DNA of 64,000 bases from Flaccisagitta enflata. Lineage: Eukaryota. Below, one piece after another: positions 1,406 to 63,574 of the stretch. The position numbers and the translations under genes are program-made. Under the pieces are notes generated by a model. That model saw only the letters and a program-made list of their open reading frames with translations, made no database searches and was not told where the DNA came from. The stretch is taken from NCBI GenBank assembly GCA_965153355.1, contig OZ231126.1:43958001-44022000 (forward strand), given 5' to 3'. Every line of letters starts with the position of its first letter. Positions within the stretch are counted from its first letter, which is position 1.

Positions 1406-1591
1406 AGTCGCGTGTACGCGACTCTACAACCCGCTTTGTCTGTCCAACTGTCCGTCGGTCGGTCGGTCACATTTTGATTTTAAGATATTATTGGTTTGAC
1501 CTCACTGCACCTGCCCAAATGGTCTAGTGACCTCAAATGTAGCCCCTGCCCACCCGCACGCGACTTCGGTAGCCGTGTATCCGGCCTTGTT
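1406..1591 (-). mobile_element. HINE-like family A copy
   Basis: Hairpin agtcgcgtgtacgcgact (1406-1423), (gtcg)n microsatellite, sub-terminal gcacgcgact (1556-1565), head ccgtgtatccggccttgtt; flanked by T runs. Confidence 0.85.
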
Positions 1592-2709
1592 CTCTTGCAA
1601 TTGTACGTCATAAAATCAACATCGGGCCCTACCTGACCTTTTCTACTTTTTAATTGTTTCTCTCATTTACGTATACTCCGCTACTGTCGTTGAATGTAAC
1701 AGGGAAATACTCGCCAAATTGGAATCAGGTTTATTGTTGAAATATACCGACAATACGTTTCGAAATAGGATTCAAAGATTACAAAAATCTCAAAAGAGAA
1801 ACATATATAAGGTAGATCACCAAGAAAAGTATGTTTTAACATGTAAGGTTTCCGAGAATGTGTGTGCAATGCTACAAAAATATCTAGTAAAACTAGCTAA
1901 CCGAATTGACGCGAGGACAGTTGCGCGGGAAGCTTGACGAAGAAGCGTATAACAATTTTAGGGTGACATAAATAACAACATTGAGCCCCGGGAAAAAAAA
2001 GCGCGGCGAAAGATAAAAAAACTTAAGCTCGACGGAGCGGAAAGGGGTGGTATTTATTTCGAGACACATAGACAATCAACTATCAAGAGCTAGAAGTGTC
2101 GTGAGAGAACATTCCTAATCTCCAACGCTTTCATCCTTAGGGGAGAAATTTGAAAGCTTGTTACCCAACTCGCAACCTCTTGTTTTGAATTTTGGAGGTG
2201 CCAAAAGAGAAAACGATTTGGAATTGGATAGAGAGAGGAAGCCAGGTGGTACACAAAAACATGATTCCGCTGAAGATGTGCGCTCAGTGTGATTTATCTA
2301 TCAGCCAAACACAACTCCTAAACCTCAATTTCTAATCCTATTTCATACAGTTCGATGGGAGCAAAGACGACCTAGATTGGAGAATAGATTTTACATATCT
2401 TCTTTTATTTATAGAAAATTTAAGATCTATTATATAAAGGTACTTTATTAAGTAAAAATATTTTCTTCTCTCAAATTTTGATTTGTGACTTGACCTTGTT
2501 AAAACTTTTGTTTAATACAGATCTTAAATTTTTTATATATCAAATGAAATTAAAATACCTGGGTCTTAGCTCCCATTGTACTGTACTCAAAACTAGATTT
2601 GTGGAAATTTATCTATCCTTTTTGTTAAGAATGTGCGTGCCAATTCATGAATTTTGCTAAAACTTTATTATGTTTTCATACAAAATATAAACTGAAGATA
2701 GAATTTTTT

Positions 2710-3150
2710 GTCGCGTGGACGCGACATTATGACCCGCTCTGTCCGTCGGTCAGTCGGATTGTCAATGACACTTTGCATTTTTGAGTCATTTTAGAATTTA
2801 GATTACTTTGAGTCAGTTTTCATTCATTTAAGTCACAATTTTTTTCAAAATTTTTGTCCTTCACATCATTTTAAGTCATTCAAAGTCAATTCAAGTCATT
2901 TCTTTTTCATTTTCGTCCTTTCGCCCTTTCGTCTTTTCGTCACTTTGTCTTTTTGGTCAATTCAGTCATTTTAGGTCGCTTTAAGTCATTTTGTTACTTC
3001 AAGTCATTTTCGGTTAATGTAAGAAATATCAGTCATCTCAATCAAGTCAATATAATCATTCAAGTCACTTGAGTCATTTTAGTCATTAGTAGTAGTGACT
3101 TTTTGTCATCTTAGTCATTCTAGTTACTTAGGTTATTCAAATCATCTAGG
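2710..3150 (-). mobile_element. HINE-like family A copy with degenerate AAGTCATTTT core
   Basis: gtcgcgtggacgcgac hairpin, gtccgtcggtcagtc microsatellite, then many ~10-bp (a)agtcatt(t) repeats. Confidence 0.7.
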
Positions 3151-3799
3151 TCGAAGGAGCCGATTGAGCCGATTAAGTCTATAAAATTGATTTAGTTGAT
3201 AAAATTAAAATAGGATTGGCTTACTCCGTGTTGTGCGAGCGGGGTGTAAATATACTAATGGCAATAAGTATGTGAAGCAACAAACCAACCATGACTGATA
3301 GTGACAGCCAAAGAGTAGGACATTCATCATCTAACAAAGAAATGAATGACGAAAAGACTCCCGTTAGAAATATTAGAATTCCATCCAACGGCTACAAAGC
3401 TGTACGAGATTTACTTCTTCAGATATGGAATCAAAATAACAAATTTACTCATACGAAAGACATCACAGTTGTAATAATATACCCTTTGACCCCGACAATA
3501 ACTGACGAAATAAATCGGTGCAAATGGTGGGGGATAGGAGGTTGACAAAGGTGGATGATTGACCAATTTGCGCAACGACTTTCGATAGAAAATACACACT
3601 GACGTGCGATGTAATCGATTCAAAGTGATCCGATATACTCAAAAAGAAGACGCGTGTACCGTTTGGATACTTCAGATAGCAAAATTTGGGAGTATTCATT
3701 CATCCTACATACAAAATTAAAGACCGATTTTATCTTAAGTCCTTCAGTTTTTTTTCTTGAGCCCTGAAATCATCTGAAAAATTCAATCAGCATAAAACA

Positions 3800-4024
3800 A
3801 GGACAACCCTTTACAGTCGCGTGCGGTTGTTAAGACCATTAGACCAAAAGACTAAAAGACCAAAAGACAAAGAGACTAAATTTAAATTGACTTAAATTAA
3901 CTTTGAATACCTTAAAATGACTTAAAATAGCAAAAAACGCCAAAAAAAGCTAAGCGTGACCGACCGACCGACCGACGGACGGACCGACGGACAGAGCGGG
4001 TTGTAGAGTCGCGTGCACGCGACT
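3800..4024 (+). mobile_element. HINE-like family A copy
   Basis: 5' key agtcgcgtgc, aaatgactt core remnants, (gacc/gacg)n, and 3' agagtcgcgtgcacgcgact followed by an A run. Confidence 0.8.
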
Positions 4025-4625
4025 AAAAATTCTATACACAGTTTTATAACTGAAAGAATACATATTTGTTTTCAAAAATTGTAGTATTTTTAGGAATATT
4101 CTTATTTCTTAGTCACAAAACACAAACTGTAGAAGCAAACCATTTTATAAAAGAAAGAATGAATAATAACTATTTCTTAAAACATTAGCATAATGATTTA
4201 TCACACCGCAATATGTAAATTAGGTCTTACAAAAAAATTATTAAATGAATAAAAAAATCATTTTCCTAAAAAAAAAATGAATGAAAAAATAGTAAAAATC
4301 CTTAATCAAACCACTCCAAAAGTCGAGGTAGAAAGAAATTCCGAATTTGTGCTAAGTGAAGCATCATGACGGGAGACCAGAAACAATTTATATCACATAT
4401 CGCGAGAATCAATTCGGCACCATGGTCCAATTTGCGGTCCGCTGGGATCAATTCCAAAAGGAAATCTTGAACGAAAGGAAAGTTTGCTCGGTAAGCAAGC
4501 ATTTGACCAACTGAACGTGATATGAACAATTTGAACATTGAACAATGTCACGACGTCGATTTAGAAAGAATTCTCGTGGCGAAAAGAGAGGTGATATAAT
4601 TATTAATTAATAATAGACACCTCCT

Positions 4626-61100: not shown

Positions 61101-61479
61101 GTAGACCCCGCAGGGCAAACAGTTTTTAACCCCGACGTATTTGTTTCTCATCATCTTTTTTCTATAAATCTTTGGTTGCCATGGGTGACTTGTAATGCCG
61201 TTTCATCCAGCCGTTGCTAGGGCCAATGAAAAAATAGAATTAATTCGCTTACTTGCAATTTTGCACTTACTGTCTTCCGATCAATTGAGAAAAGCTTAAA
61301 AAAAGCAGAAATTGTCGTCCCCTTTTTTACCCAAACTTTTACCCAAACTTGAACGGATCGACCGATTGAATTGATTTTTTACATGGTACCATCATATGAC
61401 CTTGTCTACTGATGAATGAAGTTACACGAAATTTCAGATGGTGCAACCATCCAAACCAGCCTACCTAGCTAATAACTAA

Positions 61480-62436
61480 CTATGGCAAAATAAAAAAAGA
61501 CAGTAATTTTCAAAATGATGATAAAGAGCTTAGTTTTTTAGACAGCTATGATCTGTCAAGAAGTTTGTCAAATATACCCAGCAAAAAATGATCTTGAAAA
61601 GTGATTTTTGCACCCATAAGCGATTTTTGCAAAATTTGTCTATTGAACAATCGCCGAGTTGGTATCAGTTTCAGTTTAGATCTAACTTTAAAAATCAACT
61701 GTGAGCTCAATTTTTAGAGCATGATCAAAATTTTTGAGATGGTGATAGCATGTCAAATTTCTGACACAGTGAAAAAATCAGAATTTAAAAAAGTTTATTT
61801 TTGTAGCTGCAACATCGATTTTTGTGAAATTGGTTGAAGTTGGATGGTCAAAATAAAAAAATATTTATTCAGAATTGATTTCAAATGATTATCTTTTTTT
61901 GCAGCTTCATATTTTTTTTAGATGATGATAGTATGACAAGTTTTTGACGCAGCAAAAAAATCAGAACTCAAAAAAGTGTATTTTTGCACAAGTATCATCA
62001 ATTTTTGTGAATAAACCTCCAATAAAAACTCTAGAATTGATATCCAGTTTTGATGGATTTTACAAGAATTGATGTAGAGGGTACAAAAATAGACTTTTTT
62101 GAATTCTGATTTTTTTGCTATGTCAGAAATTTGACCTGCTATCACCATCGAAGAAATATTGATCTTGCTCTAAAAATTGAGCTCAGAGTAAATTTTCAAA
62201 GTTTGATATGAACTGAAACCTATTTGATAAAAGTTCAAGTTCTCAAAGTTTAATGCAAGCGGTTCTTAGAATCCGTTATGCTGCGGGAGCAAAAATTAAC
62301 TTTTTTCAAGATCTGATTTTTTTACCAGGTAGAAAATTTGACAAACTATCACAGTCTAAAAAATTATAAAGCTGCTCTGAAAAATGAGCTCACAATATTA
62401 TTTTGAAAATTACTGTCTTTTTTTATTTTGCCATGG
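61480..62436. mobile_element. Fold-back-like element with modular inverted arms
   Basis: atggcaaaataaaaaaagacagtaattttcaaaat / attttgaaaattactgtctttttttattttgccat; an inner ~100-bp IR at 61703-61803 / 62085-62183. Confidence 0.7.
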
Positions 62437-63289
62437 TTACAAATCAGCGTAGCTTAAAAAATATTCCATGAAATTTTCTGAAATTTTGCATAAACAACCA
62501 TCCATCCCTTGGACAAATCCTGGGGAAGTTGTACGGTGATCATGTAATTACTTTGGCCGTGATCGCAAAAAGCATTTTTTTTACGCTATCAAAAACAGGA
62601 AATTCATGGAAGTTTTTTGAGGTGTTTATGCATTAGCACATGCTGACACAGGAAGTATCCTCGGATGATATGCCAGGTCATAACACGTCTTTGCTAGTCA
62701 TGGTAGCTACGTTTAAGCGAGTTTTCTGGAACCAATATCGTTTCTGTCATTTGCCATGGGCTGCTGATGGCAGGGACCTCCTCCAAACTCAGTAAAGTGA
62801 CAACAAGGATGTCATTCATAATCATCTTAAATGACACCAAGGGTCCAAAATTGCGTGGTCGCGCATTCTGCTATCAATACATTTATTTTTATTAAAAAAT
62901 TATGAAAAAAAATCATTATCTGTTGGAAGCAGCTCACTGGTAAGGCGATAAATTCCAGTAAGCCTCTGATTAAGAAGAACACTCAAACGTTCCCCAAAAT
63001 TTGGGATGGCCTGAGCGTAAAATGGCGGAAATGCACTGTGCCGGGGGCGCAACAACAACGCCATTTTCCGCTGCGTGTCGATAAAATTTGATTCATTGCA
63101 ATTCCGTGTCGGGGACGGAACGGTAGGACATGGAAGTTTAGTTAGTAGTTTAGTTTTTGAATTAAGAAGAAAGACTTCATTTTTCTCCATTTGTAATGAG
63201 GTTATTATCAGAGAGTTATTCGCGTCAATGTTTCTTTGTCAATCTGTTTGTGTGTTCATCGGTCTTTTAATCAGTTAGTTTCTCTGTCT

Positions 63290-63352
63290 CACACACACAC
63301 ACACACACACACACACACACACACACACACACACACACACACACACACACAC
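63290..63352 (+). repeat. (CA)n microsatellite
   Basis: Seen directly. Confidence 0.97.
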
Positions 63353-63389
63353 CTGCGTTGTCGATACAGAGGATATTTGAGATATAATG

Positions 63390-63574
63390 AACAAAGGCCG
63401 ATACACGGCTGCACCCCAGTCGCGGGGTGGGTGGGCAGGGGCCGATTTGCGTCACTTGATCAATTGCAGGGAGAAAGAGGGCTAAAGACTGCAAAAGCCA
63501 AAAAGTAACAAACGGACAGACCCACGGGACTGGACGGACCGACAAAGCAGGGAGTAGAGTCGTAGCATGCGACT
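63390..63574 (+). mobile_element. HINE-like family A copy
   Basis: aacaaaggccgatacacggctgcaccccagtcgcgg...gacggaccgacaaagcagggagtagagtcgtagcatgcgactaaaa. Confidence 0.8.

Follow-up and report, generated by a model that had tools for sequence, protein, structure and literature searches.

Elements of probable DINE-1/HINE type with family-specific complementary ends in a 64-kb stretch of the Flaccisagitta enflata genome

DINE-1 elements of Drosophila have a conserved 90-bp core, carry 13-bp subterminal inverted repeats (subTIRs), an inverted repeat (IR), a GTCY microsatellite and central repeats, and insert at TT; their 3′ stem-loop has been kept through compensatory changes, and five subTIR types were recorded in 11 species, with three in D. 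willistoni by itself (Yang & Barbash 2008, PMC2374699). The HINE families are defined by subTIR identity, with 7 families and 21 subfamilies in a mite genome (Thomas et al. 2014, PMC4067079), and the Pacific oyster Crassostrea gigas harbours 11 Cg_HINEs, which each possess a subTIR and IR of their own together with GTCY, GTCC or GTCK microsatellites (Vojvoda Zeljko et al. 2020, PMC7492417). Related Cg_HINEs are told apart by diagnostic changes that affect subTIR, IR and stems, as in the pair GCTCACCTGAGC/IR GCTCAAGTGAGC versus GCTCACCTGAAC/IR GTTCAAGTGAGC (Supplementary Table S2), where the change of the subTIR is matched by a change of the IR (PMC7492417). Elements of the HLE2 group are described with 12–16-nt inverted repeats, a 3′ stem-loop and T-T insertion, and are annotated by HELIANO via 11–18-nt inverted repeats and T-T insertion (PMC11417382). 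In the 64-kb stretch of Flaccisagitta enflata contig OZ231126.1 analysed here (the window), about 20 copies and fragments of one layout occupy ca. 12.5 kb, approximately one fifth of the sequence. Judged by their sequence features, these are probably (at roughly 80%) non-autonomous DINE-1/HINE-type derivatives of Helentron/Helitron2-group (HLE2) rolling-circle transposons, belonging to several families and subfamilies.

All positions given are coordinates of the window, which has a GC content of 0.42 and a CpG observed/expected ratio of 0.81, and is repeat-rich, animal-type DNA. Copies were located by self-blastn with three adjacent copies and by nhmmer profiles of the head and tail end modules, and about 15 heads and 19 tails were recovered in the window. 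With at most two mismatches, GGGTGGGCAGGGGC occurs at 10 sites (0.16 expected) and CCGCGACTAAAA at 15 sites (4.15 expected). For coding capacity, 197 stop-to-stop open reading frames (ORFs) of at least 75 amino acids were translated, 40 of low complexity were dropped, and the remaining 157 were run against Pfam.

On the strand used in the initial annotation, a typical A-group copy begins with (A)n, CAAGG, a short palindrome, a key and GGGTGGGCAGGGGC, continues into the core, and ends with (GGAC[C/G])n, CAAAGC..TAGAG, AGTCGCG, 4 nt, CGCGACT and 4–6 A's. The initial annotation had described this head-to-tail layout as a 5′ key matched by the last arm of a 3′ hairpin with an A run behind it, and the features are as it described, but their orientation is the reverse of the published DINE-1/HINE plan. 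In the literature the 5′ (left) module consists of the 5′ subTIR, a partial IR and the GTCY microsatellite, and the 3′ (right) module of the 3′ subTIR followed by a short stem-loop (PMC2374699, PMC4067079, PMC7492417); orientation of elements that lack ORFs is a convention (Yang & Barbash 2008, PMC2374699). What that description calls the 3′ hairpin corresponds to the 5′ subTIR with its IR, and its 5′ key to the 3′ subTIR; its head comprises the 3′ palindrome and the terminus, and its A run represents the T run of a T-rich target. Canonical order is thus host T's, a 5′ subTIR folding back on a partial IR, the GTCY microsatellite, and a variable core or tandem repeats, then a 3′ subTIR complementary to the 5′ subTIR and situated 19–27 nt from the end, a short palindrome, the terminus (CTTGT in the A group), and again host T's. 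The ten key and arm coordinates given for A (59578/59733), A′ (60020/60125), A2 (26793/26897), D (47995/52232) and E (50162/51737) were all exact. In the reference copy of subfamily A the parts are placed as follows:

59553..59748, minus strand: subfamily A reference copy, with a 10-nt exact inverted match between its ends (2/1000 shuffles as good).
59747–59678, canonical 5′ part: T run 59747–59743, 5′ subTIR AGTCGCGTGC 59742–59733, IR 59731–59724, GTCY microsatellite 59709–59678.
59587–59554, canonical 3′ part: 3′ subTIR 59587–59578, palindrome GCCG/CGGC 59571–59558, terminus CCTTG 59558–59554.

The likeness to DINE-1/HINE elements, which had been proposed from the letters of the sequence, was borne out in subTIRs, 5′ IR hairpin, GTCY microsatellite, central repeats, T-rich flanks and absence of a target site duplication (TSD). 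The head-side inverted match begins 16–26 nt from one end in eight copies (up to 27 nt in decayed ones), and the tail-side match ends 4–11 nt from the other, A run included. Nine of the ten runs of at least four GAC[C/G]-type units adjoin the hairpin end, as the initial annotation had it, and the tenth sits in an arm of a different element type. The predicted DNA folds of six 5′ hairpins gave z scores against shuffles of −4.2 (A), −2.7, −2.1, −1.9, −5.2 (D) and −7.7 (E), and the 3′ palindrome of D forms a 23-bp stem with z −9.95. Central tandem arrays have units of 166–169 bp in D, 143/296 bp in E, and 8–24 bp in the copies at 3797 and 2701. No Pfam domain was found in any ORF overlapping the elements, which amounts to no coding capacity.

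The claim of A runs without a TSD also held: the flanks of 16 copies contain no direct repeat above 5 nt (the longest being 2–5 nt), and A runs (canonical T's) of at least 2 nt border 11 of them on the left side and 14 on the right side. On the canonical strand, with a caret for the element boundary, the ends read T^AGTCGCG.../...CCTTGT^T or GTCC.../...GAAGCT^T, with T's on both sides. A canonical Helitron (HLE1, with 5′ TC, 3′ CTRR, a hairpin 10–12 nt before the end and A/T insertion) was considered and rejected, as its ends do not fit. Element E lies in a T tract of a D copy, and paralogous empty sites are present at ~52036 and ~56799 in two other D units; the empty sequence is ...ACTACAAAAATAATAGGC... 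and the filled one ...ACAAAAAT[CTGAAC...GCGGAC]AATAATAGGC.... Copies abut or are nested in five places (59748/59749, 55560/55561, 48745/48746, 51967/51968, and E at 50147–51752 inside D), an arrangement that fits both T runs at element ends serving as targets and tandem copies arising from missed termination. The latter is discussed by Thomas et al. 2014 (PMC4067079).

Compared with DINE-1 (INE-1), the elements share a 5′ subTIR at the very end, an internal 3′ subTIR, a partial IR by the 5′ subTIR, a GTCY-rich microsatellite, variable central repeats, absence of an ORF, insertion in T-rich sites and the occurrence of several subTIR types. The 3′ stem-loop, which in DINE-1 differs in sequence between lineages while the stem is kept, is clearest here in D. 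Unlike the DINE-1 subTIRs of Table 1 in that paper (PMC2374699), which share an ACC core (most of them ATACCC), those of the window are of the unrelated forms AGTCGCG.../GTCC..., measure 9–13 nt rather than 13, and are accompanied in A and A2 by a very short 3′ stem. Cg_HINE_1 to _11_12 and the bivalve elements Pearl, DTC84 and MgE (PMC7492417) have the same succession of left subTIR, IR and microsatellite, satellite-like centre, and right subTIR (followed by a palindrome, in part of the window elements a very short one or none evident), the same T-rich insertion without TSD, and likewise many families per genome with a subTIR of their own. Families D and E resemble the bivalve elements also in monomers of ~140–180 bp, unlike the short A-group copies, which have about two 20-bp units in place of 160-bp arrays. 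None of the 11 oyster subTIRs equals one of the window, and the A-family motifs have no match in the text of Supplementary Table S2 or the other supplement text available for that paper (PMC7492417).

The HINE-Mo/Helentron-Mo elements of the mite Metaseiulus occidentalis (PMC4067079) are similar in that their subTIRs lie 2–4 nt inside the 5′ end and tens of nt inside the 3′ end, each flank has two or more T's in varying number, the target is left unmodified and families are many; they also have a 3′ palindrome, a feature that is evident in D of the window and short in A and A2. They differ in that their subTIRs are themselves palindromic, with neither IR nor core, and in having an autonomous partner with 84–99.9% identical ends, whereas no such partner is known for the window elements. 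In the Helitron2-group elements FoHeli1 and FoHeli2 of Fusarium oxysporum a 5′ hairpin recurs inverted 38–51 bp before the 3′ terminus, and sister subgroups differ in the hairpin with complementarity kept (Chellapan et al. 2016, PMC5148889). Joined ends of FoHeli1 were amplified, suggesting a circular intermediate, and circles or joined ends are reported there for Helraiser as well (PMC5148889). Unlike the window elements, FoHeli1 and FoHeli2 are autonomous, fungal and 5–6 kb long, lack a GTCY microsatellite and insert at TNAT^T (PMC5148889). Precedents are thus in print for the architecture, for complementary subTIRs that differ between families, for genomes with many families and for stem changes that compensate each other. 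A radiation with different keys is likewise not a new idea, as families distinguished by subTIR number 7 in the mite, 3 in D. willistoni and 11 in the Pacific oyster. Twelve sequence strings from the elements and satellites gave no match in the full-text literature, and among the matches listed for DINE-1 or Helentron together with compensatory change or covariation, only Yang & Barbash was relevant.

At least five short families had been proposed. They do share one layout, but A, A′ and A2 are subfamilies of a single family, and D and E are not short. The 5′ subTIRs are AGTCGCGTGC in A, AGTCGCGGAC in A′ and AGTTGCGGAC in A2. Identity over head plus tail is 57–84% between A, A′ and A2 and 70–92% within them, the end modules align throughout, and the three are sibling subfamilies. 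The short copies have a core of only about two 20-bp units. Besides the reference copy, the copies and fragments outside D and E are:

1402..1590, plus strand: subfamily A copy with an exact 9-nt subTIR match.
2701..3150, plus strand: 5′ module copy with hairpin GTCGCGT-CC-ACGCGAC, microsatellite, then ~9-bp tandem repeats; truncated or diverged, and no 3′ module was found upstream.
3797..4030, minus strand: subfamily A copy with short internal tandem repeats and perfect 10-nt subTIRs; the 5′ hairpin is a perfect palindrome, and the 3′ palindrome region is deleted.
5064..5211, minus strand: decayed subfamily A′ copy, end match reduced to AGTCGC.
9568..9791, minus strand: subfamily A2 copy, much decayed through CpG-type transitions, exact end match gone.
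10375..10496, plus strand: fragment with 3′ module, core and microsatellite, 5′ hairpin lost.
16467..16690, plus strand: subfamily A2 copy with 5′ subTIR AGTTGCGGAC and 3′ palindrome GTGAC/GTCAC.
17004..17101, minus strand: A′ internal-deletion derivative keeping the CAAGG terminus and 5′ hairpin, without 3′ subTIR.
26768..26912, minus strand: subfamily A2 copy without microsatellite, with exact 9-nt subTIRs GTTGCGGAC/GTCCGCAAC, in an intron of the FRMD4-like gene.
32395..32560, minus strand: decayed A-type copy.
32952..33172, plus strand: decayed subfamily A2 copy.
34163..37755, minus strand: putative A-type copy with 3′ module 34163–34209 and 5′ hairpin 37730–37753 on the same strand.
55407..55560, minus strand: A-like copy with decayed subTIRs, adjoining the end of the D copy 55561..57022.
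59749..59890, minus strand: subfamily A′ copy directly adjoining the A copy at 59748.
59998..60140, minus strand: subfamily A′ copy with exact 10-nt subTIRs AGTCGCGGAC/GTCCGCGACT.
60291..60336, plus strand: A2-like 5′-module fragment.
63392..63580, minus strand: decayed A-like copy.
63641..63775, minus strand: variant "H" with CAAGG terminus, microsatellite and hairpin AGGTGC/GCACCT.

The two ends of the putative copy 34163..37755 have subTIRs one mismatch apart and share subfamily marks, with ~3.3 kb of nested foldback and satellite sequence between them; that they belong to one copy is plausible, not proven. In variant H a convincing 3′ subTIR was not found, the best inverted match being 7 nt long, at a non-homologous place and equalled in 72/1000 shuffles. 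Further (GGAC)n microsatellites at 1040–1100 (minus strand), 26940–27005 (minus) and 46715–46766 (plus) have tails of the form ...TATAGAGAT.CG... or AGTCCACAAGTCCGCAAGT without a clear hairpin, and are probably decayed or different HINE 5′ modules.

D and E are families separate from the A group, both with satellite-like arrays; D elements are 1.5–3.2 kb and E is 1.6 kb long. Their copies are:

47981..52245, minus strand: D block, comprising a partial D (47981–~48745), a full D carrying E (48746–51967) and an extra partial unit (51968–52245).
50147..51752, minus strand: E element nested in D, with a 13-nt subTIR match (0/1000 shuffles).
55561..57022, minus strand: second full D copy; its central repeats are 169 bp long and its microsatellite is (ACAG)n/(GAC)n.

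In the D block the 5′ ends consist of GTCCCCGACGAAC with the IR TTCGTCGG, the 3′ ends are 23-bp palindromes containing GTCGGGGAC, and the central repeats are 166 bp long. As position 47995 lies in a local palindrome, a chance 9-mer match was considered for D and ruled out by equal head-to-tail pairing in 55561–57022; D stands as a family because this second full copy shows the same pairing. Element E has the 5′ subTIR GTCCGCGACGGAA with its IR (hairpin −17.7 kcal/mol), (GTC)12, a 143/296-bp array at 50260–51534 and the 3′ subTIR TTCCGTCGCGGAC.

Some motifs recur across these families. Beside its 23-bp palindrome D has a second hairpin, GTCGCGT-AA-ACGCGAC (48025–48050 and 55606–55630), the stem of which is the 5′ subTIR/IR stem of the A family; a module shared by the families, or the nesting of a fragment, may account for it. 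The 9-nt core GTCCGCGAC of the E subTIR is the reverse complement of the A′ core GTCGCGGAC, giving the same pair of 9-mers in opposite order (E 50163–50171/51741–51749; A′ 60021–60029/60125–60133). The subTIRs of A′, D and E have the form GTC...GAC, which echoes the unit of the adjoining GTCY microsatellite, and A and A2 differ from it at one end.

In 8 of 18 copies the first 70 and last 32 nt share, at homologous positions, an inverted match that is exact over 9–13 nt; in none of these eight did more than 7 of 1000 tail shuffles reach the same length. The remaining ten are decayed or unconvincing in this respect, many through CpG-type transitions. Covariation was scored in a 13-copy alignment at nine key/arm position pairs (117 cells), 87.2% of which form standard pairs versus 79.3% (sd 2.0) after shuffling, with none of 500 shuffles as high; sliding the partner by 1–3 columns lowers pairing to 24.8–43.8%. 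In the local hairpin 89.0% of 91 cells are paired, and the match of the 3′ subTIR to the 5′ subTIR always extends at least as far as that of the IR. Compensatory changes between key and arm, a central point of the initial annotation, are seen at three of the nine scored positions: C-G became T-A in all four A2 copies, and two adjacent positions switch jointly, with TG/CA in A versus GA/TC in A′ and A2. All three diagnostic key differences are compensated and none is unpaired, and the IR arm of A2 has changed too (CG 7, UA 4). When the ends were joined in silico, the minimum-energy DNA fold paired the subTIRs across the junction in four of six elements, the loop then holding the T joint along with the 3′ palindrome; the fold of A_59551 has 10 junction-crossing pairs and retains the local hairpin.

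Several observations weigh against this reading, whether of what the elements are or of how their ends evolve. The subTIRs are 9–10 nt long in D and the A group (9–13 nt overall) against a published 11–13 (up to 16) nt. The 3′ palindrome of A has a 4-bp stem, GCCG/CGGC, at shuffle level (z 0.35) and is intact in 5/9 heads, that of A2 has 5 bp, GTGAC/GTCAC (z −0.89), and is intact in 2/4 copies, and in E the fold search found none evident. The Pfam search of the 157 window ORFs for an autonomous partner gave no match to Helitron_like_N/Rep, PIF1 helicase or Exo_endo_phos/AP-endonuclease; it returned host-gene domains only, plus weak matches under curated cut-offs. Empty sites of A-group copies were sought within the window, where only other repeats matched, and the E site, with three ambiguous nt, fits ATT^TTT without duplication or a 3-bp ATT duplication. 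As for the ends, pairs changed on both sides number 3 against a shuffled mean of 3.1 (421/500 shuffles as high), and further pair types number 7 against 9.1 in shuffles. The predicted joined-end fold of D has zero pairs across the junction, and the joined-end folds as a whole carry no independent weight because the complementarity itself guarantees them. The covariation is real but thin, amounting to about two events inherited by several copies. Selection for end-to-end pairing in competition with the hairpin, and several Rep-helicase specificities active in one genome, both inferred in the initial annotation, are thereby possibilities only.

The mechanism proposed for such elements draws on the established biology of Helitrons and HUH nucleases. 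An enzyme of Rep-helicase(-endonuclease) type, provided in trans, would nick at a T tract and peel off one strand 5′ to 3′, recognising the 5′ hairpin and the 3′ signals; the ends would then be joined into a circle, which would insert between two T's without duplication. One enzyme would need the same short sequence at both ends. Because the same enzyme would read both, a change in one subTIR would persist only with a matching change at the other end, and in the IR where the two overlap; such a requirement would yield keys that are family-specific and yet complementary. The 3′ subTIR, being at least as long as the IR, might once unwound displace the IR from the 5′ subTIR and leave the T^T joint in a loop; that this brings the two ends together is offered with low confidence. 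Taken further, this becomes a single-strand switch, in which the 5′ subTIR is captured from its IR hairpin by the 3′ subTIR, closing a stem around T^T (compare the nick loop of viral and plasmid Rep origins), and in which private keys let sublineages escape transposase competition and radiate. We regard this switch as unlikely. As to whether the enzyme would read a double-stranded site or a single-strand stem, the co-variation of the IR and the predicted junction folds lean towards structure.

A simpler account, to which we give somewhat less than an even chance, accepts the elements as HINEs and attributes their matched ends to descent, each subfamily having the termini of an autonomous master of its own, and to binding of one double-stranded site at both ends, with no selection on end-to-end pairing or on competition with the hairpin. 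It agrees with the three double changes mapping to about two subfamily splits, and with measures robust to relatedness staying at shuffle level; the claimed compensation is thus supported only weakly. Equally, D lacks pairing across the joined junction in the predicted fold, and the literature regards subTIRs as signatures that a family has in common with its autonomous element (PMC4067079, PMC11417382). Harder to accommodate is A2, where the IR changed together with both subTIRs, and a local hairpin is difficult to explain by a double-stranded site alone. HUH nucleases, moreover, act on single strands and usually read hairpins.

DINE-1 itself was first classified as a cut-and-paste MITE (a miniature transposable element with inverted repeats), and MITEs of a DDE transposon with a T-rich target and a 2–3-bp duplication would likewise have inverted repeats near both ends. 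Under that assignment the E site could hold a 3-bp ATT duplication, and A/T runs in the flanks could mask a TT duplication, a point discussed by Yang & Barbash (PMC2374699). The second inverted repeat lies 19–27 nt inside rather than at the terminus, though, the ends are asymmetric, no TSD exists beyond the three ambiguous nt at E, and no transposase domain was found in the window ORFs by Pfam. The layout of hairpin, GTCY and central repeats is, besides, that of elements tied to Helentrons at 84–99.9% identity (PMC4067079), and a MITE origin appears highly improbable. Still less credible, to the point of being negligible, are short interspersed elements (SINEs) or other retroposed elements with a short poly-A tail, which would explain the 1–7-nt A run behind the hairpin end on the strand used in the initial annotation. 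That run is short and of near-constant length, and A's are found at the other end too. The three signs that would have spoken for a SINE, namely a TSD, Pol III boxes and poly-A, were looked for with negative outcome throughout: there is no TSD, Pol III boxes are at or below chance (6 vs 9.4 and 11 vs 15.6), and both Rfam (including tRNA, 7SL and 5S) and ARAGORN gave 0 matches. Assignment to the DINE-1/HINE type is the one that we prefer.

Elsewhere in the window, a FRMD4-like FERM/CUPID host gene is encoded on the minus strand at 25120–29717, with the Pfam domains FERM_N at 29424–29717, FERM_M/FERM_C at 27275–28355 and CUPID at 25120–26736; a protein homology search with the FERM_N exon gave no match. 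Foldback-like elements at 11200–12600, 34400–36560 and 45960–46425 are composed of 20–21-bp satellite arrays, the largest of up to 78 units (34821–36389), with inverted arms of ~90 nt that carry (GGAC)n and the motif ccccctgtgttctacagg...ggggccgctgccc. In the short A copies the two-unit core is similar to this ~20-bp foldback monomer, a likeness that suggests exchange between HINE central repeats and foldback satellite arrays. The longest non-repetitive ORF, at 39742–40752 on the minus strand (337 amino acids, Gly/Ser-rich, no Pfam domain), matched only four unnamed ENA proteins in a homology search; identity to an unnamed ENA protein of 216 amino acids is 98% across 64% of the ORF. Other tandem arrays are located at 22099–22890, 60483–61010, 8751–9112, 16807–16990 and 49113–49507, and comprise 28/31-bp units (TTGTGGTGGTGATGGCAGTTTTACAACA...), the 18-bp unit CCCTACCCCTAAACCCAA, a pair of long (AG)n tracts and, inside D, a 19-bp array.

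One known rolling-circle class thereby explains about one fifth of the window, including an intron of the FERM/CUPID gene and several satellite-like arrays. As the class is easily confused with MITEs or SINEs, its recognition is of modest value as annotation. The nesting of E in D provides a clean boundary together with an empty site, and A, A′ and A2 form a small natural experiment on the joint change of Helentron ends. We know of no biochemical test to date of the role of subTIRs in Helentron transposition. If the structural switch were true, private keys would let sublineages escape competition for each other's transposase and radiate within one genome.

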